A stretch of DNA of 64,000 nt from an uncultured Gemmatimonadales bacterium (GCA_963815515.1 CAWFGP010000001.1:586378-650377); one strand, 5' to 3'; shown: positions 39,335 to 57,103, counted from the first letter of the stretch. Notes: generated by a model from the sequence alone, not told the origin. A program made the numbers and translations.

Positions 39335-39356
39335 ATTCGAGACCGTCTGCCGATAG

Positions 39357-39495: not shown

Positions 39496-39497
39496 TT

Positions 39498-39548: not shown

Positions 39549-39561
39549 TACGCCGCACGAA

Positions 39562-39595
39562 TCACCCGGAACTGCACGTCACCCGGAACTGCACG
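39562..39595. repeat. exact 17-nt tandem duplication (TCACCCGGAACTGCACG x2) directly upstream of the cheY ribosome-binding site
   Basis: Copies at 39562-39578 and 39579-39595, followed by GAGGGGG and GTG 39606. Confidence 0.9.
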
Positions 39596-39605
39596 GAGGG
39601 GGATT

Positions 39606-39968
39606 GTGAGCCATACAGTGCTCGTCTGCGATGACGCCATCTTCATGCGCACGATGATCAGCGACATCCTGACGCAGGCCGGGTTCGAGGTCGTGGGCGA
39701 GGCCGAGTCTGGCACCCAGGCGGTCGAGAAGTACCACGCGCTGAAGCCCGACCTGGTCACGATGGACATCGTCATGCCCGACATGGGCGGCATCGAGGCG
39801 GTCCGCGAGATCTGCAAGACCGACCCCGACGCCAAGATCCTGATGTGCAGTGCCATGGGCCAGCAGGCCCTGGTCGTCGAGGCCATCCAGGCCGGCGCCA
39901 AGGATTTCGTCGTGAAGCCGTTCCAGCCTTCCCGCGTGCTCGAGGCCGTCCAGCGCGTCCTGGGGTGA
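39606..39968 (+). CDS. cheY: chemotaxis response regulator CheY
   Basis: 120 aa. VLVCDDAIFMR...LVTMDIVMPDMGG...ILMCSAMG...AKDFVVKPF. Confidence 0.92.
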   Translation: MSHTVLVCDDAIFMRTMISDILTQAGFEVVGEAESGTQAVEKYHALKPDLVTMDIVMPDMGGIEAVREICKTDPDAKILMCSAMGQQALVVEAIQAGAKDFVVKPFQPSRVLEAVQRVLG

Positions 39969-39971
39969 CCG

Positions 39972-41852
39972 GTGGACGTTTCGAAGTACGCCGCGATCTT
40001 CCTGGCCGAGAGCCGGGAGCATCTGAGCAGCTGCAACCACTTGCTGCTCAAGTGGGAACGCGATCCCGCGGGCACCGACGCGGTCGGCGGCCTGTTCCGG
40101 TCGATTCACACGATCAAGGGCATGGCGGCCACGATGGGCTTTACCGGCGTGGCCGAGCTGGCGCACCGGATGGAGAGCCTGCTCGACGCCCTGCGGCAGG
40201 CGCGTCTCACGGCCGACGAGGCCACGTTCCAGCTGCTCTTCCGCGCGGTCGACGCCCTGGGCCAGGGCGTGGAGCAGGCGGCGGCCGGCCGGGAGCCTCC
40301 GCTGAACCTGGCGCTCGCGGCGGCGCTCGAGGCCGCGACCGGCGGCACTCCCATGAGCGCGCCGGTCTTCGAGCCGGGCGAGGCCGAGCCGCCCCGCCGC
40401 CGCGCGACCGACGGGCCCCGCGGCCGCTCGGTCCAGGTCGTGATCCGGCCCGACGCCGTGATGCGCGGGGCCCGCGCGATCCTGGCGGTCCGGCGGGCCG
40501 AAGTCCTCGGGCTGGTATCCGCGGTGCGGCCGTCGCTGGTGCAGCTGGAGCGCGAGGAGTTCGACGGCCGCCTCGGTTTCCGGATCGAGTCGCGGGCCAC
40601 CGAGGAGGAGCTCTCCGCGGCGATCCGCACCGCCGGCGAGGTGCAGCACGTCCGGTTCGAGGAGGCGGCGCCGGTCGAGGTGGACGGCGGCGCGGAGCGG
40701 CACCGTCAGATCCGGGTCGACCTCCGGCGGCTCGATCGCCTGATGAAGCAGGTCGGGGAGCTGGTCGTCGCCAAGAACCGCCTCGGCGTCCTGGCGACCG
40801 CGGGTGACGACCCCTCGCTCGCCGAGGTGAGCGACCGGATCGCCCGCCTGGTTTCGGGGATGCAGGCCGAGGTGATCGCGTCGCGGATGACGCCCGTCGG
40901 CGAGGTGTTCGAGCGCTTCCCCCGGCTGGTGCGGGACCTCGCGCGGGACCTCGGCAAGCGCATCCGCTTCGACCTCGAGGGTGAGGAGATCGAGCTCGAC
41001 CGGTCGATCCTCGACGAAATCGGCGATCCGCTGCTCCACCTGATCCGGAACGCGGCCGACCACGGCATCGAGGCGCCGGACGTCCGCGTCCGGGCCGGGA
41101 AGCCGCCCGAAGGCCGGATCCTGCTCGCCGCCACGCGCGAGCGGAACAACGTCACGCTGCGAGTGAGTGACGACGGACGGGGCATCGACCGCGCCGCCAT
41201 CGCGGCCAAGGCCCGCCGCGAGGGCGCGACGGACGTCGTGACCGCCCCGGGCGAGAGTGAGTCGGTGACCGACGACGTGCTGCTGCGGGTGCTCGCGCGG
41301 CCGGGGTTCAGCACCGCGGAGGAGGTGAGCGGCGTGTCGGGTCGCGGGGTGGGTGTGGACGTGGCGATGACCCGCGTCCGCCAGCTCGGCGGGACGATCG
41401 AGATCCGCTCGGAGATGGGGAAGGGGACGACCTTCCTGATCCGGGTGCCGCTCACGCTGGCCATCGTGCGCGCGCTGCTGGCGGACGCCGGCGGTGAGCG
41501 CTATGCGGTGCCGCTGGCCTACGTGGCCGAAACGGTGGAGTTCGATCCGCGAGCGGTCACCGCGCTCCGGAGCCGCGAGGCGCTGGTGGTGCGCGACCAG
41601 GTCATCCCGACCGTGCACCTGCGCGACCTCGTGGGCAGCCGCGGTCCCGCCGCGCCGACTCGGCGGCCGACGGTAATTCTGGAAGTCGGCGAGCGCCGCA
41701 CCGCGCTGGTGGTGGACGCCTTGGTGGGACAGCAGGATATCGTGGTCGCACCGTTCGACGCCCCGCGCGGCATGCCGCCGTACGTGGGCGGGGCGACGAT
41801 CCTCGCCGACGGCGCCCCGGCGCTCGTGCTCGACGCCGCAGCATTGCTGTAG
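39972..41852 (+). CDS. cheA: chemotaxis histidine kinase CheA
   Basis: Hpt LFRSIHTIKGMAATMGF, dimerisation IRVDLRRLDRLMKQVGELV, HATPase HLIRNAADHGIE...DDGRGID...SGRGVGVDV...GKGTTF, and a C-terminal CheW-like domain. Confidence 0.95.
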   Translation: MDVSKYAAIFLAESREHLSSCNHLLLKWERDPAGTDAVGGLFRSIHTIKGMAATMGFTGVAELAHRMESLLDALRQARLTADEATFQLLFRAVDALGQGVEQAAAGREPPLNLALAAALEAATGGTPMSAPVFEPGEAEPPRRRATDGPRGRSVQVVIRPDAVMRGARAILAVRRAEVLGLVSAVRPSLVQLEREEFDGRLGFRIESRATEEELSAAIRTAGEVQHVRFEEAAPVEVDGGAERHRQIRVDLRRLDRLMKQVGELVVAKNRLGVLATAGDDPSLAEVSDRIARLVSGMQAEVIASRMTPVGEVFERFPRLVRDLARDLGKRIRFDLEGEEIELDRSILDEIGDPLLHLIRNAADHGIEAPDVRVRAGKPPEGRILLAATRERNNVTLRVSDDGRGIDRAAIAAKARREGATDVVTAPGESESVTDDVLLRVLARPGFSTAEEVSGVSGRGVGVDVAMTRVRQLGGTIEIRSEMGKGTTFLIRVPLTLAIVRALLADAGGERYAVPLAYVAETVEFDPRAVTALRSREALVVRDQVIPTVHLRDLVGSRGPAAPTRRPTVILEVGERRTALVVDALVGQQDIVVAPFDAPRGMPPYVGGATILADGAPALVLDAAALL

Positions 41853-41863
41853 GGAGAGAGTTC

Positions 41864-42484
41864 ATGGAAGACGTGCGGGGTCTGAAGGAACTGCAGCTCG
41901 ACGCGTTGCGTGAGGTGGCCAACATCGGCGCCGGCCACGCCGCCACGGCGTTGTCGCAGATGACCAACCACACGATCATGATCGCCGTGCCCGAGGTCAA
42001 CGTGCGGCCGCTCGAGGAGGTGACCGACATGGTCGGCCGCCCCGACGAAGTGGTCGCCGCGGTCCTGATGCACATGATGGGCGATCTGACCGGCCGCACC
42101 CTGGTCCTCTTTCCGGAAGGGTCGGCTCGAACGCTGTGTGATATACTGTTCAGGCGGAGTGCCGGGACGACCGGCGAGTTCGGCCCGATGGAGCAGTCGG
42201 GGCTCAAGGAGGCGGGGAACATCCTCGCCAGCGCGTACATGAACGCGCTCAGCGACTTCATGGGCATGATGCTGGTGCCGTCGGTGCCCAGCCTGGTCAT
42301 CGACATCAGCGCCGCCATCCTCACCACCACGTACCTCAACTTCGGCCACGACCGCGACTTCGTCTTCTGCGTCGAGACGTCGTTCCGGGTCGAGGGCGCC
42401 GCGGAGCCGCTGCGCGGCCATTTCCTGCTCCTGCCCGACACACCGTCGCTCAGGGCCATTTTCGACGCCATCCGCCTGCACTGA
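41864..42484 (+). CDS. cheC: CheC-family CheY-P phosphatase
   Basis: LDALREVANIGAGHAATALSQM and SGLKEAGNILASAYMNALS are the duplicated CheC motifs (E-x2-N). Confidence 0.85.
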   Translation: MEDVRGLKELQLDALREVANIGAGHAATALSQMTNHTIMIAVPEVNVRPLEEVTDMVGRPDEVVAAVLMHMMGDLTGRTLVLFPEGSARTLCDILFRRSAGTTGEFGPMEQSGLKEAGNILASAYMNALSDFMGMMLVPSVPSLVIDISAAILTTTYLNFGHDRDFVFCVETSFRVEGAAEPLRGHFLLLPDTPSLRAIFDAIRLH

Positions 42485-42488
42485 TCCG

Positions 42489-45170
42489 ATGCCCGGGCCT
42501 GTCTTGTCGGAGCGCGATCTCGCCGTCCTGCGCTCCTTTGCCCGCCGGATCGACCCGTCCGACGCCGGCGCCCACAACAACCTGGGCGTCCTCTACTATC
42601 AGAAGGGGCTGATCGAGGACGCGATCACCGAGTTCGTCCGCGCGCTGGAGCTCGACCCGCGGATGCAGGTGGCGCAGACCAACCTCGACATCGCCTACCG
42701 CGAGAGCGGCCACTACGACCGCCGCGTGACCGACCTCAAGGAGCGCGTCCGCCGGCAGCCCGAGGATCGCGACGCGCGCTGGGAGCTCGCCCGCGCCCAC
42801 GCGGCCCTCGGCCGCCACGCCGAGGCGATTGCCGAGTTCCAGGCGCTGCTCGCCTGGCAGCCGAGCGACGTGCCGGCCATGCTGCAGCTCGGCCTCGCCG
42901 AGAAGGCGCGGGGCAACCTCGACACCGCCACGGATTGGCTCGCCCGCGCCTGCGCGCAGGACCCGGCGAGCGCGGTGGCGCGTTTCTATCATGGCGAGGT
43001 GCTCTACAACCGGGGCCTCAACGAGCCGGCGCTCGACGCCCTGCGCCAGGCGATCGAGCGCAACCCCGACTACGCCGAGGCGCACTACCTCCTGGCCTTC
43101 GTGTACGGGGACATGGGCCGGCACGAGGACGCTCGCGAGGCCACCAAGCGCGCCATCAAGCTGAATCCGACCCTGGCCCGGGCACAGGCCAACCTCGCGC
43201 TCGATCGCTACCCCCAGAACGGCACCCATGCGGGCGCGCGCACGGCCGACCGCCCCCAGATCGTCGAGGGCGGCGCGCTCGCCCACTACAATCTCGGCCT
43301 GGCCTTCCGGCAGAAGGGCCTGCACGAGGAGGCGCTGCGCGAGTACCGGCTGGCGCTCGACGCCGGCGAAGACCGGCGCATGACGCTCCAGGCCATGGCC
43401 GAGGTCCATCTCCTGCGCCGCGAGCTGCCGGCCGCGCTCGAGCTCTACGACGCGCTGGTCCGCGAGTTCGCCGACTCGCCGAAGCTCTGGAACGAGCGGG
43501 GCGTGTGCCTCCACCAGGCGGGGCGCCGGGCCGAGGCGATCGCGTCGTACGAGCGCGCCGTAGGCGTCGACCCGGGGTACCAGCTCGCCTGGAACAATCT
43601 CGGCGTCATCCGGGCGGGCGACGCGGGCGAGGCCGGCATCGCCGCCTTCCGCCGGGCGCTCGACGGCGAGCGGCCGCTGTTCGCGGCTCGGCTCAACCTG
43701 GGCCTCCTGTTTCTGCAGCGCCACCAGCTCCGGGCGGCGCTCGAAGAGTACCAGGGCGCCCTCGCGGAGCAGAGCGGAAGCGCCGTGGGGTGGAACGGCG
43801 TGGGCCTGGTGCTCATGGAGCTCCGCCGGTTCGAGGACGCGCGCAACGCGTTCGGCCGCGCGGTGGACGCCGACCCGGCCATGGCCGGCGCGCGCTACAA
43901 CCTGAGCTTCATCCTGAGCCAGCTCGGCGACTTCGACGGCGCGCTCAGGGAGACCCGCCGCGCGCTCGAGCTCGAGCCGCTGTACGTCCCCCAGAAGTTC
44001 TCCCTCACGATCGATCTCCAGTACGAGGATCCGACGATCGCGATCGCGCCCGAGCTGGCCGCCGAGGTGGGCGGGGACCAGCTCGCGGGTGAGTTCGCCT
44101 TCGATCCGCCGGCGCTGGATCAGCTCTTCGCCGAGCTGGCTCCCGATGCGCCGCCACCCGGCGCGCACACCGTTGCGGGCGACGCACTCGACCTCGCCCG
44201 GGATTACATCGCGAAGGGACTGCTCGACCTGGCCTCGGCCGAGCTGAGCCGGGCCGCCGCCCGCGGCGCGCCGCACGGCGCCACCGCGGTCCTCCTGGGC
44301 GACATCTTCGCCAAGCGCGGCCTCTACGGCGAAGCGCTCGAGCGCTACCGGGCCGCCCGCGCCGCCGCGCCCGACGATCCCGACGCCACGCTCGGCGAGA
44401 TCCGCGCGCTCCTGTCCCTGGGCTGGGCGGGCGACGCGGCCCCGCTGGCCGACGAGCTCGCGCGCCGCGTGCGCGGCGACGTCGAGGTGCTCGTGGCGCG
44501 GGCGCGCGTGCGCCTGGCCGTGGGTGATGCGCTCGGCGCGCTCGACTGCATTCGCGAGGCGCAGACCCTCGCCCCGGGCCGGCCCGACCTCTTCCATCTC
44601 CAGGCCCAGGTCTCCGCCCGGCTCGGCGACCGCACCGCCGCCCTTGCCGCGTTCAACGCCGCGCTGCACCTCGATCCGTCGCTGGTGCGCGTGTGGTTCG
44701 AGCTCGGCGGAATCGAGGAGGAGCGCGGCAACTGGCCGGCGGCGCGTTCGGCCTACGAGCGCGCGCTCGACCTCCTGCCCACCTACGGCGCCGCGGCATT
44801 GGCGCTGGCCGAGCTGCTGCGGCGCACCGAGACGCCGCGCGCGGCTGTCCACGTGCTCGTCCGCCTGCTCGAGGCGGATCCCTACGAGCTCGAGGCGCTC
44901 ACCGCGCTCGGCCGCGCGCTGCTCGAGGATGGCCGCACCGCCCAGGCGCTCGAGGCGTTCGAGCGCGTGCTGCGGTTCGACCCAGAGCATGCCGGGGCGC
45001 TCTACCACGAGGGCGCGGCGCTCGCCCGCCAGCGGCAGTTCGACCAGGCCGTGCAGGCGTGGGAGCGGGTCGTGCAGCTCGATCCGGGCGGACCGTACGC
45101 CTCGCAGGCGCGGTCCCGTGCGCGCTCCGCGCGCGATCTCCAGCACATCTTCGCGGCTTCGGCGGGCTAG
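42489..45170 (+). CDS. large TPR-repeat protein (893 aa)
   Basis: Repeated 34-aa units throughout, e.g. AHNNLGVLYYQKGLIEDAITEFVRALELDP and AHYLLAFVYGDMGRHEDAREATKRAIKLNP. Confidence 0.85.
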   Translation: MPGPVLSERDLAVLRSFARRIDPSDAGAHNNLGVLYYQKGLIEDAITEFVRALELDPRMQVAQTNLDIAYRESGHYDRRVTDLKERVRRQPEDRDARWELARAHAALGRHAEAIAEFQALLAWQPSDVPAMLQLGLAEKARGNLDTATDWLARACAQDPASAVARFYHGEVLYNRGLNEPALDALRQAIERNPDYAEAHYLLAFVYGDMGRHEDAREATKRAIKLNPTLARAQANLALDRYPQNGTHAGARTADRPQIVEGGALAHYNLGLAFRQKGLHEEALREYRLALDAGEDRRMTLQAMAEVHLLRRELPAALELYDALVREFADSPKLWNERGVCLHQAGRRAEAIASYERAVGVDPGYQLAWNNLGVIRAGDAGEAGIAAFRRALDGERPLFAARLNLGLLFLQRHQLRAALEEYQGALAEQSGSAVGWNGVGLVLMELRRFEDARNAFGRAVDADPAMAGARYNLSFILSQLGDFDGALRETRRALELEPLYVPQKFSLTIDLQYEDPTIAIAPELAAEVGGDQLAGEFAFDPPALDQLFAELAPDAPPPGAHTVAGDALDLARDYIAKGLLDLASAELSRAAARGAPHGATAVLLGDIFAKRGLYGEALERYRAARAAAPDDPDATLGEIRALLSLGWAGDAAPLADELARRVRGDVEVLVARARVRLAVGDALGALDCIREAQTLAPGRPDLFHLQAQVSARLGDRTAALAAFNAALHLDPSLVRVWFELGGIEEERGNWPAARSAYERALDLLPTYGAAALALAELLRRTETPRAAVHVLVRLLEADPYELEALTALGRALLEDGRTAQALEAFERVLRFDPEHAGALYHEGAALARQRQFDQAVQAWERVVQLDPGGPYASQARSRARSARDLQHIFAASAG

Positions 45171-45173
45171 CCC

Positions 45174-46223
45174 GTGGCGCTCGAGGGCACGCTCAAGGAC
45201 CTGCACATTCAGGACGTCTTCCAGCTGCTCGACCTGGGCCGGAAGAGCGGCGTCCTGCGCGTCACGTCCGAGCTGCGGCAGACCGCCGGCACGGTCTGCT
45301 TCGACCGGGGTGGCGTGGTGGCCGCGGCGGTCGGGAGCGACCCGCAGCCGCTCGGGACGCGCCTCATCCGCGCGGGCCGCATCACCGCGGCCGACCTCGA
45401 CCGCGCGCGCGGCATGCAGAACGGCGGCGACGGACGCCGCCTGGGCGACATCCTCCTGGAGCTCGGCGTGGTCACCCGCCGCGAGCTCGACCGCCAGCTC
45501 AAGGCCCAGATCGAGGAAGCGGTGTTCGAGCTGCTGCGCTGGTCGGAGGGCTACTTCCGCTTCGAGGAAGGGGCGCCGTACCACGCGGCGGTGGAGTCGC
45601 CGGTGCGCTTTCCGACCGAGGCGCTGTTGATGGAGGCGGCGCGGCGGATCGACGAATGGTCGCGCATCGGCTCGAAGGTGTCGCACCTGCGCCTGGTGCC
45701 GCGGCTGCCGCCGCCCGAGCAGCAGGGCACCGACACCCTCGACCTGGTCCCCTTCGAGTGGGAAGTGCTGGCCGCCATGGACGGCTCGCGCGATCTCCAC
45801 TCGCTCGCCGAGGTGCTGGGCCGCTCGGAGTTCGAGGTGGCGCGGACGGTGTACGGCCTGACGAACGCCGGCATCGTCGTGCTCGACGATCCGGCGCATC
45901 CCGGCGAGGAAGCCGAGCCTGGCCGCGACCTGGCGGCGCTGCTCGTGCCGGCGCGCGAGGCGCTGGCGCAGAGGCAGTATGATCTGGCCGCCGGCGCTCT
46001 CGAGGAGCTGCTCCGGGCCGACCCGCTCATGCCGGAGGCGTGGCGGCTGCTCGGTGTCTGCTACGCGGCGCTCGGCCGCCACAGCGAGGCGCTCGACTGC
46101 TGGGCCTCGTGGAGCCGCCTCGGGACCCGGACGCCCGGCGAGGAGTCGGAGAGCGCCACGGTGGAGCACCTGCGCCAGTCGGTGGAGACGATTCTGAAGG
46201 AGCTGGAGCGCTATCGTGACTGA
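45174..46223 (+). CDS. PATAN/DUF4388-domain protein with C-terminal TPR
   Basis: N-terminus LEGTLKDLHIQDVFQLLDLGRKSGVLRV...GTVCFDRGGVV...LGDILLELGVVTRRELD...EEAVFELLRWSEGYFRFEEG is the DUF4388 pattern. Confidence 0.75.
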   Translation: MALEGTLKDLHIQDVFQLLDLGRKSGVLRVTSELRQTAGTVCFDRGGVVAAAVGSDPQPLGTRLIRAGRITAADLDRARGMQNGGDGRRLGDILLELGVVTRRELDRQLKAQIEEAVFELLRWSEGYFRFEEGAPYHAAVESPVRFPTEALLMEAARRIDEWSRIGSKVSHLRLVPRLPPPEQQGTDTLDLVPFEWEVLAAMDGSRDLHSLAEVLGRSEFEVARTVYGLTNAGIVVLDDPAHPGEEAEPGRDLAALLVPAREALAQRQYDLAAGALEELLRADPLMPEAWRLLGVCYAALGRHSEALDCWASWSRLGTRTPGEESESATVEHLRQSVETILKELERYRD

Positions 46224-47091
46224 CGACATCCGCGCGCTGACGACCAGGATGGCCGAGGAGCCCGGGAGCCTCGCGTTCCTCGAGCTCGCCGAGGCGCTCC
46301 GCCGCCGGGGCCAATTGGAGGCCGCGTTCAAGGTGGCGCGTGGCGGGCTGTCCCGGTATCCGGGTCTCGCCGACGCGCACGATCTCATGGCACGGGTGCT
46401 GAGCGACCAGGGCGACCTGGCCGGCGCCTTCGACGCCTGGTCCTCGGTCCTGCAGCTCGATCCGATGCGGACCAGCGCGCTCAAGGGGATCGCGTTCCTC
46501 TATTTCCGCGCGGGCGATACCGCCGCGGCACTCGATCACCTCCAGCGCGCCATGGACGTCGACCCCGACGATCCGAGCATCCGACAGGCGCTTGGACGGA
46601 TCGGTGCCACGCGGTCGGAGCCGGCAGCCGTGCAGGAGGCCGCCACGGGCCCGTCATCGCGAGCGACGGGTCTGCCGTCGCGAGAGTCGGCCGCGGGTGC
46701 CGAGGCGCCGTCCGCACCGGCGTCCGCCGGACGCGCGGCCGGCCCCTTCGACGGCATCGATGGCGGGGAGCGCGGCCTGCTCCTGGTCGACGCCAATGGC
46801 CTCCGCCTGGGGGGCGCGCTGGCATCGGCTGACGGCGAGGAGGCAGGCGATCGGGTCGCGGCGCAGCTGGCCGGCGTCTCGCGGGAGGCGGCCCGGGCCA
46901 CGCGGCTCCTCGGCCTCGGAAGCTGGCACGCCATCGCGATCGAATGTCCCGACGGACACCTCGTGCTGGCGCAGTCCAGCGCGGACACCGTGCTGCTCGC
47001 GAGCCGCGATCACTCGATTCCGATCGGCCGGGTGGGGCTCCTGGCCGAGCGCGCGGCGCGGGCCGCCCGCGCGTGGCTGGAGACTCAGTGA
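46216..47091 (+). CDS. TPR + Roadblock/LC7-domain protein
   Basis: The N-terminal ~125 aa are TPR (FLELAEALRRRGQLEAAFKVARGGLSRYP...), followed by an Ala/Ser/Pro linker. C-terminus GLLLVDANGLRLGGAL...AAQLAGVSREA...WHAIAIECPDGHLVLAQSSADTVLLASRD is a Roadblock pattern. Confidence 0.65.
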   Translation: MTDDIRALTTRMAEEPGSLAFLELAEALRRRGQLEAAFKVARGGLSRYPGLADAHDLMARVLSDQGDLAGAFDAWSSVLQLDPMRTSALKGIAFLYFRAGDTAAALDHLQRAMDVDPDDPSIRQALGRIGATRSEPAAVQEAATGPSSRATGLPSRESAAGAEAPSAPASAGRAAGPFDGIDGGERGLLLVDANGLRLGGALASADGEEAGDRVAAQLAGVSREAARATRLLGLGSWHAIAIECPDGHLVLAQSSADTVLLASRDHSIPIGRVGLLAERAARAARAWLETQ

Positions 47092-47438
47092 TGACGACGA
47101 CCCAGGACGCGCTCGACCGCGTGACGCGCGTGCCCGGTGTCCGCGGCGCGCTGGTCGTGGGAGCGACGGACGGCCTGGTCGTGGCGCAGCAGCTCATGGA
47201 CGGCATCGACGGCCAGGCGGCCGCCGCGCTCACGGGGAGCCTGGTGAGCCGGCTCGGGCGGACCGCCGAGAGCGCCGGGCTACGCCCCCCGGCCTTCGTC
47301 CAGCTCCGTGGCGAAGCGGGCAGCATTCTCGCGGCCCCCGGGCCCGACGACCTGGTGCTCGTCGCGGTCGTCGGGCCGGATGCCAACCTGGGCCTCGCCC
47401 GGCTGGAGATGATCGAGGCGGCGGGACGGCTGGCCTGA
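47091..47438 (+). CDS. Roadblock/LC7-domain protein (MglB-like)
   Basis: 115 aa. LDRVTRVPGVRGALVVGATDGLVVAQQL...AAALTGSLVSRL...VQLRGEAGSILAAPGPDDLVLVAVVGPDANLGLARLEM. The ATG overlaps the upstream TGA. Confidence 0.75.
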   Translation: MTTTQDALDRVTRVPGVRGALVVGATDGLVVAQQLMDGIDGQAAAALTGSLVSRLGRTAESAGLRPPAFVQLRGEAGSILAAPGPDDLVLVAVVGPDANLGLARLEMIEAAGRLA

Positions 47439-47899: not shown

Positions 47900-47904
47900 C
47901 CGGC

Positions 47905-48507: not shown

Positions 48508-50480
48508 CCGTCACGCTCAACCCGCTCTACCGCTTCGACACCCTCATCGTGGGCGCCGCCAACCGGCTCGCGGTGACCGCGGCGAAGGCCGTCGCCGAGT
48601 CGCCGGGGACGGTGTACAACCCGCTGTTCATCTACGCCCGCCCTGGGCTGGGCAAGACCCACCTCCTGATGGCCATCGGGCATGCGGCCCGGGCCATCAA
48701 CCCGCGGCTCACGGTCGAATATCTCACGCTCGACGAGTTCGTCGAGGCGTTTCACGCGGCCATCGCCGCGGGCCACGGTGAGGCATACCGGAAGCGGTTC
48801 CTGGACGTCGACGTGCTGCTGGTGGACGACGTGCAGTTCCTGACGCACCGGCGTGAGATGCAGGCGGAGCTGCTGCGGCTGACCGATGCGCTGCAGACCA
48901 CCAACCGCCAGATCGTCCTCACCAGCGACCGGCCACCTGCCGAGATCGAGGCGCTGGACGAGCGGCTCATCCGGCGGTTCGCGGGCGGGCTCATCATCGA
49001 CGTCGCGGCGCCCGACTACGAGACTCGCGTCGCCATCCTGCGCCGCAAGGCCGAGGAGCGCCGGGCGGGGTTCGGTGAGGCCGTCCTCGAGGCGGTGGCC
49101 TCGCTTGCCATCGACAACGTGCGCGAGCTGCTGGGCGCGCTCAACCGGCTCATCGCGTTCCAGGCGGTGAGCGAGCAGGCCCTCGGCCCCGAGCAGGCCC
49201 GCATGCTGGTGGGGGGCGAGGTGGAGACGTCGGAGCCCGCCGCGCCGGCGGCCCAGCCGGTCGTGGAGCCCTCGCCGGCCGCGGCCTCCGCCGAGCCGTC
49301 GGAGTTCGACGACTTTCTCTCCGAGATCGCCGCCACCGTTGCCCAGCAGGTCGACGCCTGGCGCGGCAAGGTCACCGCCGCCGTGCTGCGCTGGCAGGGT
49401 GAGGGGTTCCGCACCGCCCAGCTCGAGGCGCTGCTGGCGCAGGAGATGGTGAACGACCCCGAGCGCAGTCTCCGAGAGTTCGAGGAGGACGTCGTCCGGC
49501 TCCAGCACATGCAGGCCGAGGCAGCGGCGCTCGCGCCCGAGCTCGCCGGGTCGGCCGCCTTCCGGGACCCGGCCAACCTGGACGCCGCCGAGGAAGCGCT
49601 CCGGCAGGCCCGCGAAGAAGGCGCGCCCCCGCCGGCGCCCTCGCCGCTCTGGCGGCTGGACGCGATGGTCGAGACCGCGGCCAACCGGGTCGTGCTCGAG
49701 GCCGTGCGCACCGTGGCCGCGGAGCCCGCCCACCGGTACAACCCGCTCGTCCTGGTCGGCGGGCCGGCGGTCGGCAAGACCCACCTGCTGCACGCGCTCG
49801 GCAACGCGCTCGCCGAGCGCGGCGGCCCGGTGGCCTGCCTCAGCGCGCCGGAGTTCACCGGCGAGTTGATCGAGGCCATCGACCGCGACGCGATCGCCGG
49901 CTGGCGGGCGCGCTACCGCCGGGCCACGGCGTTCCTGCTCGACGACGTCCACCTCATCGCCGCCAAGGACCGCACGCAGGACGAGCTGTTCGTGCTGTTC
50001 AACGCGCTGATCGATGCGGGCCGGCAGCTGGTGTTCACGTCGGCTGCGCCGCTCGACGAGCTCACCGGCGTCGAGCCCCGGCTGCGGTCGCGCCTCGAGG
50101 GCGGCCTGGTGGTCGAGCTGTCGCCCCCCGACGCCGCCGTGCGGGAGCGCGTCCTGCTGCGCGATCTCGGGTCCAAGCTGGGCACGGCCGATCCCCAACT
50201 CGCGGCCTACGTCGCCTCGCGCCCCGCCGATTCCGTCCGCGCGGCGCAGGCGCTGCTGCAGCGCGTGCTCGAGGCCGCGGCCGCCCAGGGCGTCACCCCG
50301 AGCGCCGCCTTCGCGCGCGAAGTGATCGAGGGCCAGACCCCGGCGCCCGCGGCGGCGAAGCGTTCCTCGAGCCGGTCGAGCGGCCTGGTGGCCCCCGGCG
50401 CGAGCGCGACCCGGAGCCGCGAGAAGATGGTGTGGGAGTGGCCCGAGGTGAGCGAGCGCGTGATCGAGGAGTGGCGCTGA
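48504..50480 (+). CDS. protein with two tandem DnaA/Hda-like AAA+ modules and no recognisable DnaA domain I or IV
   Basis: GTG 48504 (GTGA overlap with the mglA stop). Module 1: NPLFIYARPGLGKTHL, VLLVDDVQFL, IVLTSDRPP, RLIRRFAGGL, PDYETRVAILRRKA, NVRELLGALNRL. Module 2: NPLVLVGGPAVGKTHL, AFLLDDVHLI, LVFTSAAPL, RLRSRLEGGL. Confidence 0.85.
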   Translation: MTVTLNPLYRFDTLIVGAANRLAVTAAKAVAESPGTVYNPLFIYARPGLGKTHLLMAIGHAARAINPRLTVEYLTLDEFVEAFHAAIAAGHGEAYRKRFLDVDVLLVDDVQFLTHRREMQAELLRLTDALQTTNRQIVLTSDRPPAEIEALDERLIRRFAGGLIIDVAAPDYETRVAILRRKAEERRAGFGEAVLEAVASLAIDNVRELLGALNRLIAFQAVSEQALGPEQARMLVGGEVETSEPAAPAAQPVVEPSPAAASAEPSEFDDFLSEIAATVAQQVDAWRGKVTAAVLRWQGEGFRTAQLEALLAQEMVNDPERSLREFEEDVVRLQHMQAEAAALAPELAGSAAFRDPANLDAAEEALRQAREEGAPPPAPSPLWRLDAMVETAANRVVLEAVRTVAAEPAHRYNPLVLVGGPAVGKTHLLHALGNALAERGGPVACLSAPEFTGELIEAIDRDAIAGWRARYRRATAFLLDDVHLIAAKDRTQDELFVLFNALIDAGRQLVFTSAAPLDELTGVEPRLRSRLEGGLVVELSPPDAAVRERVLLRDLGSKLGTADPQLAAYVASRPADSVRAAQALLQRVLEAAAAQGVTPSAAFAREVIEGQTPAPAAAKRSSSRSSGLVAPGASATRSREKMVWEWPEVSERVIEEWR

Positions 50481-52096
50481 TGGCGATCAAGGGCAGCCTC
50501 AAGGAGGCCAGTCTCCCGGACGTCATTCAGCTCCTGTTTCTGGGGCGGCGGACGGGCTGCCTCGCGCTCGCCGACCGGCACAACTTCGGCACGATCTATT
50601 TCGAGGAAGGGCACATCATCTACGCCGCGATCGTCAACCGGCGTGATCGGCTGGGCGACATCCTGCTCCGGAGCGGGCGCATCACGCAGGAGCAGCTGCA
50701 GGACGCGATCGCGGCGCAGGCAGGGGACCGGGAGCACAAGCTCGGCGAGATTCTCGTCCAGCTCGGCGTCCTCCCCCGCGAGGAGCTCGAGAGCTACATC
50801 CGGCTGCAGATCGAAGAAGCCGTGTACTACCTGTTCACCTGGATCTCGGGGACGTTCAACTTCGAGGCGGGCATCCGGCCGGAGCTGGAGGACTTCCTCG
50901 TCCGCATCAACCCCGAGTTCCTGCTGCTCGAGGGCGCCCGGCGAGTAGACGAGTGGAGCCAGATCGAGAAGAAGGTCCCCTCGTTCGATCTGATCTTCAC
51001 CGTGGATCCGGCCCACATCGGCGAATCGGCCCCCACGCTGTCGGCCGAACAGCAGCGCCTCGTGCCGCTGCTCGACGGCTCGCGCGACGTGCAGGCGGTC
51101 ATCGAGGAGTCCGGCCTGGTGGAGTTCGAGGTCGGGAAAGCGCTCTACGGCCTGATTACCGCCGGCTTCGCCCATCGGACCGGTACGTCGGCCGCCGCCG
51201 CGCCGAAGGTCCATGACGGCCGGGTCGAGGAGCACCGGAATCTCGGCGTGGCCTTCTACAAGGCGGCGATGCTGGACGAGGCCCTGCGCGAGTTCCGCCG
51301 GGTCGCGGACCTCCGCCCGACCGACGCGAGCGCACCGTTCTACCTGGGGCTGATCGCCCTGCGCCAGGGGCGCTGGGAGGAGGCGATGGCGGGATTCCGG
51401 CAGGCGGCCGAGGGGGCCGGCGGCCGCCCCGCGGCGCTGCACAACCTCGGCTACGCCCTCGAGCGCCTCGGCCGGCTGGACGAATCGGAGACCGCCTACG
51501 GCGACGCCGCCGGCCGGGCCCGGGACGACGCGCGCATCATGCTCGGCTGGAGCGTGGTGGCGCTCAAGCGGGGTGAGCACCAGGTGTCGCAGGGCCGGCT
51601 CGCCCGGACGCTCGAGCTGCTCGGCAGCAAGCCGGCTCCGGCTCTCTGGTACTGGGCCGCCACGCTCGCGAGCGCCGGCCTCGACGACGCGCCCGGCGCA
51701 CTCCGCGCCGCCAAGGCGGGCGTGGCCGCATTCCCGGCGAGCGCCGTGCTTCAGAACAATCTCGCGGTGCTGCTCGAGCTGAGCGGCGACGTGGCCGGCG
51801 CCGAGGCGGCGCTCCGGGCCGCGCTCGCCGAGGATCCGTCGCTGCCACAAGTCTCCAAGAACCTGGCCGACGTCCTCTACCGGAACGGCCGCTACGATGA
51901 GGCCCGCGAGGCCTACGAGCGCGCCGCCAAGCTGGCCCCCGATCTCGGCGACGACCTGTACTTCAAGCTTGGAAACCTGGCCTACAAGCGGCGGGACAAG
52001 TCGGTCGCTCGCGAGAGCTGGAGCCGCGCCACCACGCTGAATCCCGCGCACGAGCTGGCCAAGGCCAACCTCGAGATGCTGGACATGGCCCCGTGA
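50480..52096 (+). CDS. PATAN/DUF4388-domain protein with C-terminal TPR (paralogue of 45174-46223)
   Basis: IKGSLKEASLPDVIQLLFLGRRTGCLAL...GTIYFEEGHIIYA...LGEILVQLGVLPREELE...EEAVYYLFTWISGTFNFEAG, then TPR units (HRNLGVAFYKAAMLDEALREFRRVADLRP ...). Confidence 0.75.
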   Translation: MAIKGSLKEASLPDVIQLLFLGRRTGCLALADRHNFGTIYFEEGHIIYAAIVNRRDRLGDILLRSGRITQEQLQDAIAAQAGDREHKLGEILVQLGVLPREELESYIRLQIEEAVYYLFTWISGTFNFEAGIRPELEDFLVRINPEFLLLEGARRVDEWSQIEKKVPSFDLIFTVDPAHIGESAPTLSAEQQRLVPLLDGSRDVQAVIEESGLVEFEVGKALYGLITAGFAHRTGTSAAAAPKVHDGRVEEHRNLGVAFYKAAMLDEALREFRRVADLRPTDASAPFYLGLIALRQGRWEEAMAGFRQAAEGAGGRPAALHNLGYALERLGRLDESETAYGDAAGRARDDARIMLGWSVVALKRGEHQVSQGRLARTLELLGSKPAPALWYWAATLASAGLDDAPGALRAAKAGVAAFPASAVLQNNLAVLLELSGDVAGAEAALRAALAEDPSLPQVSKNLADVLYRNGRYDEAREAYERAAKLAPDLGDDLYFKLGNLAYKRRDKSVARESWSRATTLNPAHELAKANLEMLDMAP

Positions 52097-52908
52097 CCGA
52101 CGAACTCGCCTTCGCCGCGCTCTCGCGCGAGATCATCAAGGCCAGCGGCTTCGCCGTGGATGCCTACAAGGACAAGTGCATCCGGCGCCGGATCGCGGTG
52201 CGGATGCGCGCCTGCGGCGTGCACACCTACGAGGACTATCGCATGCTCCTGAAGCAGTCGCCCAGCGAGTACGAGCGGCTGCGGGACGCGCTGACCATCA
52301 ACGTCACCCGGTTCTATCGGAACGCCGAGACCTGGAATCTGATCCGGCGCGAGGTCCTGCCGGTCTTGTTCGACCACCGCCGAGACGAGGTGCGGGCCTG
52401 GAGCGCCGGGTGCTCGTCGGGCGAAGAGCCGTACACGCTCGCCGTGCTGGCGGCCGAGCATCTGGACCGCGCCGGCCGGGCCGACGAGCTCGCCCGGCTC
52501 ACGATCGACGCCACCGACATCGATCGCACCAGCCTCGACCGGGCACGGTCGGCCAGCTACCGGAGCGAAGGGCTCACCGAGATGCCCGACGACCTGGCCC
52601 GGCCCTACTTCGAGTCGGCCGGCGACGAGCGACGGGTGATCGACCGCGTGCGGCGCCGAGTCCAGGTCCGGGCGCTCGACCTGAGCCGCGAGGCTCCGCT
52701 CCGGACCGACTACGACCTGATCCTCTGCCGCAACGTCGTGATCTACTTCGACCGGGTCATGCAGGAGCGGCTGTTCCAGACGTTCACCGGCGCGCTGGTG
52801 CCCGGCGGGTATCTCGTGTTGGGCAAGGTCGAGACGCTCTTCGGCGCGGCCCGCGAGCGCCTCACCCTGATCGACCCGCGCGAGCGCGTATACCGGCGGC
52901 CGGCGTGA
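52093..52908 (+). CDS. cheR: chemotaxis protein methyltransferase CheR
   Basis: TINVTRFYRNAETW, VRAWSAGCSSGEEPYTLAVL and DLILCRNVVIYFD. Confidence 0.93.
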   Translation: MTDELAFAALSREIIKASGFAVDAYKDKCIRRRIAVRMRACGVHTYEDYRMLLKQSPSEYERLRDALTINVTRFYRNAETWNLIRREVLPVLFDHRRDEVRAWSAGCSSGEEPYTLAVLAAEHLDRAGRADELARLTIDATDIDRTSLDRARSASYRSEGLTEMPDDLARPYFESAGDERRVIDRVRRRVQVRALDLSREAPLRTDYDLILCRNVVIYFDRVMQERLFQTFTGALVPGGYLVLGKVETLFGAARERLTLIDPRERVYRRPA

Positions 52909-53390
52909 GGGGCGAGATCATCGTGAAGGTCGCCGACCTCCGCTCAGGGACCGGGAACGACGTCCTGGTGACGATCGGCCTCGGGAGCTGCGTCGCAATC
53001 GTGCTGTACGACGCCACGGCCCGCGTCGGCGGAATGGCGCACGTGCTGCTGCCGTCGTCGGCGCTGAGTCGCCGCGACAGCAATCCGGCCAAATTTCCCC
53101 AGACGGCGGTGCCGCTTCTGCTCGAGCAGATGGGGCAGCAGGGTGCCAACGTCCGCCGGATCTCGGCGCGTCTGGTGGGCGGCGCCAGCATGTTCAGCGG
53201 ACTGGGCGCACCGGGCACGATCCAGATGGGTGAGCGCAACGTCGTGGCCTCGCGTCAGGCGCTCCACCTGCACAGTGTGGCCATCATCGCCGAAGCCACC
53301 GGGGGCGACTTCGGCCGCACCGTGCGGCTCTGGGTGGCGGACGGCCGCGTCGAGGTTTCGTCGGTGGCGCATGGTGTCCAAACCCTCTGA
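52905..53390 (+). CDS. cheD: chemoreceptor glutamine deamidase CheD
   Basis: GTG 52905 (GTGA overlap). [16 protein letters not shown]...GGMAHVLLP...GERNV. Confidence 0.9.
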
Positions 53391-54447
53391 CCCCCGGACC
53401 GTCCTGGTGGTCGACGACAGCCCCTTCTTCCGGCGGCTGCTGAGCGACGTGGTGGACGGGAGCCAGGAATTCCGGGTCGTCGCCACCGCGCGGAACGGGA
53501 TGGATGCAGTCCAGAAGGTGCACGATCAGAATCCCGACCTGGTCCTGATGGACCTCGAGATGCCCGAGCTCGATGGCCTCGGCGCCATCGGCTACATCAT
53601 GTCCGAGTCACCGCGCCCGATCGTGGTGGTGAGCTCCTACGCCGGGCCCGGCACCGCGGCGGCCATCCGCGCGCTCGAGCTGGGCGCGGTGGATCTCGTG
53701 GCCAAGGCCGAGGACCGGACCGAGGACGCCCTCACCCGGTTCGGCGAACGGCTGCTCACGGTGCTTCATACGGTGCGGAGTGCCGCCATCCTCCGGATGC
53801 CGATGCTCGCGCGGCCCGCGCGCGGCGCCCATCCACAGGCCCTGTTCGCGCTGCCGGGCCGGGCGCGGCAGTGCGCCGCCATCGCCGCGTCAACCGGCGG
53901 GCCGCGTGCGCTGGCGGAGGTGGTGCCCGCGCTGGGCACGGGGCAGCAGGCCGCGGTCCTGATCGTGCAGCACATGCCACCCAAGTTCACCCACAGCCTG
54001 GCCGAGCGGCTCGCGGCGCAGAGTCATTTCAACGTGGTCGAGGCGCAGCAGGGGACGCCGGTCCTGGCGGACACCGCGTATGTAGCACCGGGGGATTATC
54101 ATATGCGCGTCGCCACGGGCCTCGACGGGCTCCGTCTCGAGCTCGACCAGGAGCCCTCGATCTGGGGCGTCCGGCCCGCGGCCGATCCCCTGTTCCGGAG
54201 CGTCGCGAAGATCTTCGGCCCCCGCGCCGTGGGCGTCGTGCTGACCGGCCTCGGACGGGACGGCGCCGACGGGCTCCGCGCCATCCACGATGCCGGCGGA
54301 GTCGGGATCGCACAGGACCGCGAGACCGCCACGATCTTCGGCATGCCGAGCGCAGCGGCCCAGGCCGGCGGTGTGGATCACGTCCTGCCGATCGGCCGGA
54401 TCGCCGATCGGGTGGGCCAGGAGCTCGGCCGGATGGCCGCCCGGTGA
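53371..54447 (+). CDS. cheB: chemotaxis response regulator protein-glutamate methylesterase CheB
   Basis: Receiver [14 protein letters not shown]...[13 protein letters not shown]. Esterase [21 protein letters not shown] and [11 protein letters not shown]. Confidence 0.93.
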
Positions 54448-54884
54448 GCGCGGCCGTGAAGGGTGGGGTGGGGCACCTGCTGGTCCGCGCCGGCGGCCGG
54501 CTGGTCGGCCTGCCGCTGGATCAGGTGGTCGAGGTCCTCGACCCCGGCACCAGCTTCCCGGTGCCGTCGCTCGAGCCCGCGGTCCGCGGCGTGACCATCG
54601 TGCGGGGGCGGATCCTGCCGCTGGTGCATCTGGGCACGCTCCTGGATGGCGGGGCCTCTCTGCCGGCGCGCACCGACACCGGCGTCCTGGTCGAGCTGGC
54701 CGGCCGCCGGCTCTGCCTGGAAGTCGAGGAGGCCGAGTCGGTCCTGTACGACACAGGGCTCGCCGTGCCGCCGGGCAGCGCACTCCCGTGGGCGGCGGCG
54801 GTCGCCCGAACCGATCGCGGCCTCGTGCCCCTGCTGGACCTCGCCGCGCTGGGCGCGCGCTTCACGGAGACTTCTGCCCCATGA
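54444..54884 (+). CDS. cheW: CheW-like coupling protein
   Basis: GTG 54444 (GTGA overlap). [24 protein letters not shown]...[21 protein letters not shown]...[20 protein letters not shown]. Confidence 0.75.
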
Positions 54885-55351
54885 CGACCACTGGCGACGA
54901 TATCCAGCTCGTGAGCTTCCGGGTCGGGACCCAGGAGTTCGCGTTCGACATCCTCCAGGTCGAGCGGATCCTCCGGCACGTGACCCCCTCGCCGCTGCCC
55001 AAGTCGCCCGACTTCCTCGAGGGCGTGGTTCCCTACGAGGGCGGCGCGGTGCCGGTGGTGGATCTCCGCAAGCGCTTCGACCTCGAGGCGCCCATCCGCG
55101 AGGAGACCCGGCTCATGGTGGTCGACCTCGGCGACCATCGGGTCGGCGTGCTGGTGGACGAGGTGCGCGAGGTGATGCGGGTCGACAGCACTACCATCAC
55201 GGCTCCCGGACCGATGGTGAACGGGCTCGCGGCCGCCTACATCGCCGGCATCGTCACGCGCCCCTCGCGCACGATCATCATCCTGAACGCCCGGAAGCTG
55301 CTCTCCGCCTCCGAACGCACGGCCCTGACCGGCATCGGGAGCGGCCAGTGA
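54881..55351 (+). CDS. cheW: CheW coupling protein
   Basis: ATG 54881 (ATGA overlap). LVSFRVGTQEFAFDILQVERIL...FLEGVVPYEGGAVPVVDLRKRF...VVDLGDHRVGVLVDEVREVMRV. Confidence 0.88.
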   Translation: MTTTGDDIQLVSFRVGTQEFAFDILQVERILRHVTPSPLPKSPDFLEGVVPYEGGAVPVVDLRKRFDLEAPIREETRLMVVDLGDHRVGVLVDEVREVMRVDSTTITAPGPMVNGLAAAYIAGIVTRPSRTIIILNARKLLSASERTALTGIGSGQ

Positions 55352-56217
55352 GCGAGCCCTGGCTCACCGCGCTCCGGGCCCAGTTCCAGGCGATCGAGAC
55401 CCGCCTGGGAACGTCGGCGCAGCCGGGCGACCGTGAGGCGCTCAAGCGGGACATCATCGCCCTCTTCAAGCGGGTGGATGCGGCGCTCGGCGACCTGGGC
55501 CAGATGAAGGAAGACATCCGCGGACTGGTGGAGCGCTACAAGCAGGGCGCGGCGGCGGAAGTCGCCACGGCGCCCCAGTTCACCGGCGCCCGTCCGGCGA
55601 TCCACGCCGACCACCTCGGAGCCTCGACCTACATCGAGAAGGGCTGGAGCCTGATCTCCCTTGGCGACTACGCCGGCGCGATCCAGTCGCTCGAGAAGGC
55701 GCTGACGCTGGCCCCCGGGGAGGTCCAGGCCCAGTCGCTCCTGGGCTGGGCCCAGATGCTGCACGAGGACTACGACGATGCACTCGGCACCTTCTCGCGG
55801 GTCCTGATGAAGGAACCGGCGAACGCGCTCGCGCGCATCAACGTCGGCTACATCTGCCTCAAGAAACGGATCTTCGGCGAGGCCATCGAGCATCTGTCGA
55901 AGGCCATCCGGTTGGACAACGATCGGAAGGCGACGCTCTACGCCCACTACTATCTGGGGTTGGTGTACCTCGAGCGCGAGATGTTCGAGGACGCGCAGAG
56001 CTTCTTTCGGAAGACGCTCAAGCTGGGCCCCAATCTGATCGAGGCATACTTCGAGCTGGGCCGCGCCCTCTGGTTCGCGGGCCAGCGCGACGAGGCGATG
56101 CAGACCTGGGCCGAAGGCCACAAGGCCAACAAGTTCAATCCCTGGGCCAAGCGCTGCAAAGAGATGCTCGACCTGGTCGCGTCGGGAGGTGAGGTCCCGC
56201 GCAACCTGGTCTCCTAG
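55348..56217 (+). CDS. coiled-coil + TPR protein
   Basis: GTG 55348 (GTGA overlap). TPR units IEKGWSLISLGDYAGAIQSLEKALTLAP and AHYYLGLVYLEREMFEDAQSFFRKTLKLGP. Confidence 0.8.
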   Translation: MSEPWLTALRAQFQAIETRLGTSAQPGDREALKRDIIALFKRVDAALGDLGQMKEDIRGLVERYKQGAAAEVATAPQFTGARPAIHADHLGASTYIEKGWSLISLGDYAGAIQSLEKALTLAPGEVQAQSLLGWAQMLHEDYDDALGTFSRVLMKEPANALARINVGYICLKKRIFGEAIEHLSKAIRLDNDRKATLYAHYYLGLVYLEREMFEDAQSFFRKTLKLGPNLIEAYFELGRALWFAGQRDEAMQTWAEGHKANKFNPWAKRCKEMLDLVASGGEVPRNLVS

Positions 56218-56241
56218 CACTCCTCCTCCTGCTCCAGGGCA

Positions 56242-57089: not shown

Positions 57090-57103
57090 TAGCCTCCTCT
57101 CTT

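Follow-up and report, generated by a model that had tools for sequence, protein, structure and literature searches.

A stretch of 64,000 nucleotides (nt), one strand of the genome of an uncultured Gemmatimonadales soil bacterium (GCA_963815515.1 CAWFGP010000001.1:586378-650377) and here referred to as the window, contains an operon of about 19 plus-strand genes that extends from cheW0 to a peptidase gene and in which coding regions overlap or nearly abut. The operon encodes a complete chemosensory (Che) core, namely, three CheW proteins, CheA, CheY, CheC, CheR, CheD and CheB, together with the GTPase MglA, Roadblock proteins, two PATAN-TPR proteins, three TPR scaffolds and an AAA+ ATPase containing two DnaA domain III modules. 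In our judgment, the chances are somewhat better than even that this is a Che pathway whose output is a cytoplasmic polarity module and not a flagellar switch, with type IV pili being the most likely target.

An initial annotation of the region, made from the sequence alone, had described 17 plus-strand genes at 39606-56217. When gene models were re-derived and every product was scanned against Pfam, all 17 were found in the frames assigned to them, with the largest gap measuring 11 nt, the very maximum that had been proposed. The overlaps of stop and start codons listed at that time, i.e., 4-nt overlaps at 48504, 52093, 52905, 54444, 54881 and 55348 and a TGATG at 47436-47440, were all present, as were others at 46216 (8 nt), 47091 (1 nt) and 50480 (1 nt). 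The order of the genes and all of the domain calls likewise held, with weak calls having been settled by PDB searches; profile hidden Markov model and PDB searches, the check that had been suggested for the MglA, Roadblock, PATAN and DnaA-like assignments, supported each of these. What had been overlooked were the outermost genes, cheW0 upstream and the peptidase gene downstream, and, in terms of module content, the cyclic di-GMP (c-di-GMP) motifs and the standing of the ATPase and PATAN protein as the most persistent core. The G+C content of the whole window is about 71%, and third-position GC traces an unbroken run of plus-strand genes over approximately 38.9-57.1 kb. Such packing points to a single transcript reaching from cheW0 to the peptidase gene. 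The most likely start of cheB is the ATG at 53371, creating a 20-nt overlap with cheD. The features of the operon are listed in Table 1.

Table 1. Features of the operon, with coordinates counted from the first nucleotide of the window (aa, amino acids).
Feature	Length	Coordinates	Strand	Support and remarks
CheW0, third CheW-like coupling protein	145 aa	38897-39334	+	Pfam CheW 81.7 bits
cheW0-cheY spacer		39335-39605	+	Tandem Repeats Finder; comparison with L001, L054, L007, L002 and L004
CheY, single-domain response regulator	120 aa	39606-39968	+	Response_reg 110 bits
CheA histidine kinase, P1 to P5	626 aa	39972-41852	+	Pfam Hpt, P2, H-kinase_dim, HATPase_c, CheW
CheC, CheY~P phosphatase-type	206 aa	41864-42484	+	Pfam CheC 74 bits; median identity 84%
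Large cytoplasmic TPR scaffold	893 aa	42489-45170	+	Many TPR families (Pfam)
PATAN(DUF4388)-TPR 1	349 aa	45174-46223	+	DUF4388 114 bits
TPR + Roadblock/LC7 fusion	291 aa	46216-47091	+	TPR families; Robl_LC7 24.7 bits (cutoff 23), residues 186-261
Stand-alone Roadblock/LC7 protein	115 aa	47091-47438	+	Robl_LC7 41 bits; PDB hits generic Roadblock
MglB-type Roadblock protein	153 aa	47438-47899	+	PDB hits; directly upstream of mglA
MglA, Group 1 Ras-like GTPase	200 aa	47905-48507	+	PDB sequence search, Pfam
Tandem DnaA-domain-III AAA+ ATPase	658 aa	48504-50480	+	Bac_DnaA x2, 303 bits
PATAN(DUF4388)-TPR 2	538 aa	50480-52096	+	DUF4388 122 bits; start overlaps ATPase stop by 1 nt
CheR methyltransferase	271 aa	52093-52908	+	CheR 167 bits and CheR_N
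CheD	161 aa	52905-53390	+	CheD 92.5 bits
CheB methylesterase with receiver domain	358 aa	53371-54447	+	CheB_methylest 210 bits, Response_reg 79 bits; most likely start
CheW1	146 aa	54444-54884	+	CheW 66.6 bits; least conserved gene, median identity 59%
CheW2	156 aa	54881-55351	+	CheW 110.8 bits
Terminal TPR protein	289 aa	55348-56217	+	TPR families, first repeat at residue 92; median identity 79%
Peptidase_MA_2 metallopeptidase	278 aa	56253-57089	+	Pfam 47 bits; 35 nt after last TPR gene

A genome scan with the ATPase as query revealed 196 relatives, the best 80 of which, essentially all from Gemmatimonadales or Gemmatimonadota metagenome-assembled genomes (MAGs), place the window in this lineage. 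In 36 of the 42 Gemmatimonadales loci spanning the interval, all 17 genes are collinear on one strand, while the other six are without detectable CheW1 only; no further gene is missing wherever its position falls within a locus. As such, the juxtaposition of these genes is not due to chance, and the architecture, whose presence in relatives had been named as a check, is kept across the order. The loci without CheW1, a gene otherwise found between cheB and cheW2 (L064, L066, L071, L073, L077 and L080), are all among those most diverged from the window, which suggests lineage-specific loss or extreme divergence. Upstream of cheY, cheW0 was seen in 49 of 49 loci reaching that far and, being about 36 nt from cheY in the closest relatives, is considered part of the cluster. 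The flanks are also conserved (rluD upstream, peptidase-TPR-rsmH downstream), with ileS-lspA-rluD always bordering the cluster on one side and rsmH-ftsI-murE, a set of division and cell-wall genes, on the other. CheY is the most conserved protein of the cluster (median identity of 94% across loci), followed by MglA (91%).

Distant members of the ATPase family, obtained from a 50%-representative search, include a series of reduced variants of the operon. At two such loci (L084 and L085), the order is CheY-CheC-TPR-PATAN-TPR/Roadblock-Roadblock-MglB-MglA-ATPase-PATAN-TPR-peptidase, with each component being orthologous to its counterpart and the slot being the same as in the window (in L084, rluD lies upstream and peptidase-TPR-rsmH downstream), yet CheW0, CheA, CheR, CheD, CheB and CheW are absent. 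That CheY and CheC stay with the core when the kinase is absent argues for phosphorylated CheY (CheY~P) being the input of that core. At L090, L093 and L094, only (Roadblock)-ATPase-PATAN/TPR-peptidase is found, directly after rluD, whereas L081 presents CheW-CheY-CheA-AAA-CheW-CheC-TPR-PATAN-ATPase without MglA or Roadblock proteins. In L089, the ATPase lies beside a homologue of the 893-aa TPR protein, orthologues of which adjoin ATPase or PATAN genes in L081, L084 and L089. PATAN-TPR 2 is encoded directly 3' of the ATPase in L084, L087, L090, L093 and L094. Such a series of reduced variants identifies the ATPase and PATAN protein, and not MglA, as the persistent core; in Gemmatimonadota-type loci, this core consists of the ATPase and PATAN-TPR 2, followed by the peptidase. 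Given the upstream synteny and peptidase shared by L090 and L093 and the identical slot of L084, these three loci are probably of Gemmatimonadota origin. The remaining distant loci have G+C contents of 34-69%, a range that indicates diversity and nothing more.

Relatives of the ATPase in other organisms connect the family to phosphorelays and to type IV pili. At L091 (9249-12939), genes for Hpt, REC, Hpt and REC proteins come after that of a tandem DnaA-like ATPase to whose C-terminus a receiver (REC) domain is fused, and divergent genes upstream specify a hybrid kinase and an HD-domain response regulator; the set reads as a multistep phosphorelay with the ATPase as its end point. Fusions of MshEN, the domain with which PilB binds c-di-GMP at its N-terminus, to one or more DnaA modules occur beside pilB in three type IV pilus clusters on three contigs, with pilD, pilT, pilC or pilS/pilR nearby. 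These fusions are rare, forming six clusters in a protein search. On a contig of 34% G+C, genes encoding AAA_22, an MglB-like Roadblock protein, MglA, PATAN, an MshEN-DnaA fusion and PATAN stand in a row, with this MglA being 49% identical and containing TVPGQ. Accordingly, the grouping of MglB, MglA, PATAN, DnaA-like ATPase and c-di-GMP motif recurs in an unrelated lineage, the motif being carried there by the ATPase and in the window by the neighboring, translationally coupled PATAN protein. An output other than a flagellar motor, as put forward in the initial annotation, thus gains indirect backing from the MshEN-bearing relatives in pilus clusters, the REC fusion and the mglB-mglA-PATAN cluster.

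Two further observations concern these distant loci. An AAA_22/STAND-like ATPase of about 272-275 aa, absent from the window, accompanies the PATAN/DnaA-like grouping in two unrelated lineages, appearing within the che cluster of L081 (4035-4853) and upstream of mglB-mglA in L095 (7068-7895). In L089, a Gemmatimonadota MAG, two bactofilin genes (3765-4667) are located some 6 kb upstream of the ATPase/TPR pair; bactofilins act with the MglA paralogue SofG in Myxococcus xanthus pilus polarity.

The ATPase comprises DnaA-type modules at residues 5-238 and 395-609, between which lies a helical middle domain (residues 267-372), and ends in a conserved tail. The closest match of residues 5-245 is Bacillus subtilis DnaA domain III (193 bits, 43% identity), and the ATPase scores 437 bits against TIGR00362. 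In an AlphaFold2 model with a predicted local distance difference test score (pLDDT) of 88.7, the middle helical domain was confidently modelled, and Foldseek aligned module 1 to B. subtilis domain III (8bv3) with a template modelling score of 0.93 and a root-mean-square deviation (rmsd) of 1.6 A. Members of the family are publicly annotated as "chromosomal replication initiator protein DnaA". However, Pfam detected neither DnaA domain I (PF11638) nor domain IV (PF08299) in the ATPase, both of which true DnaA proteins carry, such that identity as a DnaA orthologue was rejected. Identity as an Hda-type inactivator, i.e., a single module of about 230 aa, was similarly rejected, given the length of the ATPase, its two modules and middle domain, and its score of 152 bits against the Hda model TIGR03420 (cutoff 195), with module 2 providing the best stretch. 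In module 1, Gly-Lys of Walker A and Asp108 of Walker B do not vary among 39 diverse members of the family, and W646 of the strongly conserved tail, EKxVWxWP..RLIEE, is found in 36. The box VII arginine is better conserved in module 2 (R530, 33 of 39) than in module 1 (R158, 23 of 39), as fits an intramolecular head-to-tail pair; in such a pair, the arginine finger of module 2 probably serves to complete the module 1 ATP site.

Both PATAN-TPR proteins are predicted c-di-GMP sensors. PATAN-TPR 2 scores 44.9 bits against NF053729, the model of the MshE-type c-di-GMP motif (cutoff 38), with a complete two-motif predicted site at residues 57-110 that consists of the 24-residue motifs RLGDILLRSGRITQEQLQDAIAAQ and KLGEILVQLGVLPREELESYIRLQ, in keeping with the definition of MshEN as a paired 24-residue motif (PMC5013675) that makes up a domain of some 53 residues. 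Among 21 orthologues and paralogues, there is no variation at G59, Q80, G89 or Q110. PATAN-TPR 1 scores 38.8 bits against the same model over residues 59-112, with its helical insertion containing one perfect MshEN-type motif, RLGDILLELGVVTRRELDRQLKAQ, from residue 89, the first motif being degenerate. An AlphaFold2 model of the PATAN domain of PATAN-TPR 2 (50480-51229; pLDDT 81) places the MshEN-type motifs in a four-helix insertion, which Foldseek superimposed on the MshE-c-di-GMP complex (5htl) over 56 columns with an rmsd of 1.2 A and 36% identity. No Response_reg match was obtained for either protein, and both end in TPR repeats. With PATAN thus joined to TPR and not to a receiver, phosphorylation must arrive in trans via CheY. 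Other Foldseek hits of the PATAN model were weak, involving subunits of the eukaryotic GATOR1/KICSTOR and SEA complexes (E 0.2-1.3, none significant) and, for the C-terminal part, a winged-helix domain (also non-significant).

Although Pfam matched MglA only to Arf (26 bits), M. xanthus MglA structures match the window protein over its full length (248 bits, E 6e-73; Thermus thermophilus MglA, 221 bits), with 57% identity over 196 residues. GPGRSGKT at 19, D52-R53-T54, T78VPGQ and NKQD at 141 occupy the same positions as in M. xanthus. Group 1 MglA proteins are marked by TVPGQ instead of DxxGQ at G3 and by an intrinsic arginine beside the G2 threonine (PMC4316618). As such, TVPGQ, D52-R53-T54 and the full-length similarity define the window GTPase as a true Group 1 MglA. 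The gene 5 nt upstream (stop at 47899, mglA start at 47905; the order is constant in all loci) encodes a protein scoring below the cutoffs of Pfam Robl_LC7 (21.1 bits, cutoff 23) and NCBIfam MglB (38.5, cutoff 200), yet every PDB sequence match of this protein below E 1e-5 is an MglB (6h5b, 6izw and 3t1r; E 1.6e-8 to 7e-6), which identifies it as a divergent MglB, with the two genes in the classical mglB-mglA order. A recent origin of the three Roadblock proteins by duplication was rejected, there being no significant pairwise similarity among them.

The Che proteins include all that a Che system requires, i.e., CheA with P1 to P5, CheW and CheY, all above Pfam cutoffs. In CheY, the Asp pair 9-10, Asp54 and Lys104 are seen. 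The best NCBIfam models for CheA are CheA models, with scores below their cutoffs. No chemoreceptor domain of the methyl-accepting chemotaxis protein type was detected in the cluster or in the other window open reading frames (ORFs) scanned; receptors may lie elsewhere in the genome. As for the remaining products, the N-terminal 90 or so residues of the terminal TPR protein are without a Pfam domain; its L084 orthologue, 64% identical, is encoded directly after PATAN-TPR 2. The peptidase, with HELAH (HExxH) at residue 91, has a transmembrane helix and then RRRRR in its C-terminal part and is the sole membrane-anchored protein of the cluster. Its gene, probably the last of the cluster, follows the module in 49 of 49 Gemmatimonadales loci and in L084, L090, L093 and L094, with L081 being the exception among loci where downstream DNA was read.

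Published findings bear on how these parts could work together. In Synechocystis, PilB and PilC are bound, and pilus polarity set, by the PATAN domain of PatA-type regulators; in M. xanthus, pilus formation is reported to be stimulated by MglA together with the TPR protein SgmX (PMC7519303); and MglA/MglB genes are often found near PATAN genes (PMC4316618). On this basis, the operon is read as placing a polarity complex under CheY~P and c-di-GMP control. Receptors encoded elsewhere would control CheA, which would phosphorylate CheY, with CheC resetting CheY and CheR, CheB and CheD adapting the receptors. For the steps from CheY~P onward, we infer that CheY~P would act on a complex of the tandem ATPase and PATAN-TPR proteins, with c-di-GMP providing a second input via the PATAN insertions. 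The two-module ATPase could serve as a nucleotide-driven switch or as an assembly scaffold and, together with the TPR proteins, would position MglA-GTP against MglB and the other Roadblock proteins, so fixing the active pole. The most likely target would be the type IV pilus motor (the PilB N-terminal domain and PilC), while tethering or processing of the complex may fall to the membrane-anchored peptidase. A broader proposal, which we offer tentatively and consider somewhat less likely than not, is that the tandem ATPase and its coupled PATAN-TPR protein form an ATP-driven device, not recognised before, that regulates cell polarity and type IV pili by integrating CheY~P and c-di-GMP, and onto which MglA/MglB and the Che proteins were layered later in Gemmatimonadales.

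Several points weigh against control of pilus polarity by a Che pathway. Neither the scanned window ORFs nor the examined flanks of the Gemmatimonadales loci include a gene for pili, flagella or receptors, such that the target is deduced only from distant relatives and other organisms. Foldseek matches the PATAN insertion to MshE over a short stretch only (E 0.36), and the relative orientation of the domains in the ATPase model is uncertain, with a predicted template modelling score of 0.53. Finally, CheA and CheY find their best NCBIfam profile matches among archaeal-type models, which hints weakly at descent from a class whose usual output is flagella or archaella.

This last point enters into the possibility that the operon is an ordinary flagellar or otherwise conventional chemotaxis operon packed together with an unrelated polarity set, the two sharing a promoter but not a pathway. 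The set does contain CheC and CheD along with its archaeal-type matches, and CheC/CheD-type systems are known to drive flagella or archaella. The che genes, moreover, form two blocks that are absent as blocks in L084, and the ATPase-PATAN core exists without any che gene. Still, where CheA, CheR, CheD, CheB and CheW are absent, the module retains CheY and CheC, the distant L081 links CheW-CheY-CheA-CheC to TPR-PATAN-ATPase without MglA, and one ATPase family member bears a fused receiver domain. With CheY and MglA being the two most conserved proteins and gene order being fixed in 36 of 42 loci, mere co-packing appears distinctly improbable. Were the tandem ATPase instead to position or segregate a cytoplasmic chemosensory array, as does the analogous ParA-like PpfA encoded in a Rhodobacter che operon, then MglA and the Roadblock proteins would be accessory. 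The three CheW proteins and the lack of a receptor gene among the scanned window ORFs would allow for an unusual array, DnaA domain III can bind single-stranded DNA (PDB 3r8f is among the structural matches), and nucleoid-bound Frz arrays are known in M. xanthus (PMC6952110). Such a role sits poorly, however, with an ATPase-PATAN pair that persists at loci without any che gene and with relatives of the ATPase found in pilus clusters and in an mglBA-PATAN cluster without che genes, and we deem it highly improbable.

We also regard as unlikely a role in cell-cycle polarity (growth, budding or division) or in replication coupling, whereby the ATPase would act on DNA or on the initiator and MglA would mark the growing or dividing pole. 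The 43% identity to B. subtilis DnaA and the TIGR00362 score place the ATPase closest to a real DnaA domain III, the cluster always lies between ileS-lspA-rluD and rsmH-ftsI-murE, DivIVA is encoded a few genes upstream in relatives and Gemmatimonas has been described as dividing by budding as well as fission. At the same time, the ATPase contains neither domain IV, responsible for DnaA-box binding, nor domain I and does not have the single-module architecture of Hda, its relatives are fused to PilB-type MshEN and located in pilus clusters, and gene order simply inherited could account for a constant position within a single phylum. The literature on both PATAN and MglA, moreover, points to pili.

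The boundaries of the putative transcription unit rest on gene packing and on a tRNA-Val(TAC) gene (57395-57470) that marks its end, as positive boundary evidence was not provided by scans of 38800-57600: no sigma-70-like promoter was detected in this region, terminator-like sites were no commoner than in shuffled sequence and there was no excess of internal promoter-like sites. A search of the whole window against Rfam yielded two tRNAs only, with no c-di-GMP or other riboswitch. The start codon of cheW0 overlaps the stop codon of rluD by 8 nt (38897-38904), such that the chemosensory cluster may be read through from ileS-lspA-rluD, which are housekeeping genes.

The cheW0-cheY spacer measures 271 nt, as compared to about 36 nt in the two closest relatives (L001 and L054). 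The enlargement of some 235 nt comprises three short tandem-repeat arrays (16 nt x4.6, 15 nt x3.4 and 17 nt x2; 39355-39595) and a palindrome resembling a repetitive extragenic palindromic (REP) element, while the last 36 or so nt, including the ribosome-binding site GGAGGGGG, are conserved. The palindrome, an inverted pair of CCTGAGCGCAGCGAAGG, is found again at 62689-62744, between ftsI and murE (4 matches, as compared to 0.07 expected). That the enlarged spacer serves as a conserved regulatory region was rejected, with the repeats being absent from the closest relatives and the palindrome being dispersed; the latter looks like a REP-like element and not like a regulatory site of the operon.

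Other features of the window surround the operon. Beyond the peptidase gene lie a small ORF containing two hydrophobic stretches (approximately 57100-57320) and, just ahead of rsmH, the second tRNA (59304-59378); the latter is preceded by the gene for a 572-aa TPR protein that bears a signal peptide. Signaling genes abound in the upstream half of the window, encoding a hybrid histidine kinase with an ETR1_N ethylene-receptor-like N-terminal domain, a GAF-PAS hybrid kinase, two Ser/Thr kinases and the c-di-AMP synthase CdaA, with coordinates of 5851-7905 (-), 10036-11706 (-), 12880-14829 (+), 21555-24107 (+) and 29052-29912 (+). A 950-aa ORF at 18155-21007 (+) has a coding-like third-position GC of 0.87 and no Pfam match at E 0.001.

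All of the component families are already known, as is Che control of MglA in Myxococcus. New are the order-wide, hard-wired architecture, the presence of a c-di-GMP motif inside PATAN in this context and the recruitment of a DnaA-derived double ATPase; a new protein-family function within the operon is plausible. Literature searches revealed no published description of the operon or of the ATPase family, with the sole trace being a supplementary-table entry for Gemmatimonas aurantiaca GAU_1409, 'PATAN>MglA>-PATAN>'. Che resetting of the MglA switch is known largely from M. xanthus, where the parts are scattered and the FrzX/FrzZ-RomR-MglB link was pieced together genetically. Here, a different phylum holds the whole circuit in one conserved operon, with related genomes serving as natural deletion variants, offering independent genomic evidence that Che-to-MglA coupling would be ancient and not a myxobacterial peculiarity. 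Should the ATPase and PATAN-TPR protein act as proposed, the operon would constitute a gene-by-gene parts list leading from a chemosensory signal to a small-GTPase polarity switch. The double ATPase, the PATAN-TPR proteins with c-di-GMP motifs, the extra Roadblock proteins and the membrane-anchored peptidase are new candidate components; they can also be tested in M. xanthus, where PATAN proteins number more than a dozen. The ATPase would, moreover, represent re-use of the ATPase module of the replication initiator outside DNA replication and, with the family being routinely mis-annotated as DnaA, the finding corrects that annotation.

Of known systems, the Frz pathway and MglA/MglB/RomR of M. 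xanthus share with the window operon a Che-type phosphorelay, a Group 1 MglA with the same TVPGQ and Arg53, an MglB-type partner with extra Roadblock paralogues (compare MglC), TPR effectors (compare SgmX) and, as predicted here, the control of cell polarity. As the initial annotation had correctly stated, mglA and its chemosensory partners are encoded at separate loci in Myxococcus, as is also the case in Bdellovibrio, whereas a single operon is seen here (PMC4316618). Unlike the Frz system, CheA of the window is without a fused receiver domain, and CheC and CheD are present. CheY is a single-domain protein and CheB is the only other receiver protein of the operon, with no search having been aimed at homologues of RomR, RomX, RomY, FrzZ or FrzX. 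Of the M. xanthus module components named in the papers compared, none is a tandem DnaA-like ATPase or a PATAN-TPR c-di-GMP sensor.

The cyanobacterial Tax/Pix systems, with PatA-type PATAN-REC proteins, resemble the window operon in that Che-like operons contain PATAN proteins, with PATAN being the output there; in the window, PATAN is joined to TPR and not to a receiver, and the operon further includes MglA/MglB, the Roadblock proteins and the ATPase. Actinobacterial conservons (CvnA-D) likewise combine a histidine kinase, a Roadblock protein and an MglA-family GTPase in one operon, yet their histidine kinase is a membrane protein and their MglA belongs to Group 2, having GTPGQ and lacking an intrinsic arginine; they include no Che proteins, PATAN domain or AAA+ ATPase. 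Relative to DnaA and Hda, each module of the window ATPase shows the domain III fold, Walker A and B, the box VII arginine and sensor II, but two modules are joined in one chain via a helical domain, with a WxWP tail and in signaling or pilus contexts. Lastly, the predicted c-di-GMP site shares with the MshEN/PilB N-terminal domains of Vibrio cholerae MshE and T. thermophilus PilF two 24-residue RLGxxLLxxGhhxxxxLxxxLxxQ motifs and a four-helix bundle, differing in a spacer of 6 residues instead of 5, in Arg at motif position 11 and in its placement, which is within PATAN of a TPR protein instead of N-terminal in a secretion ATPase.

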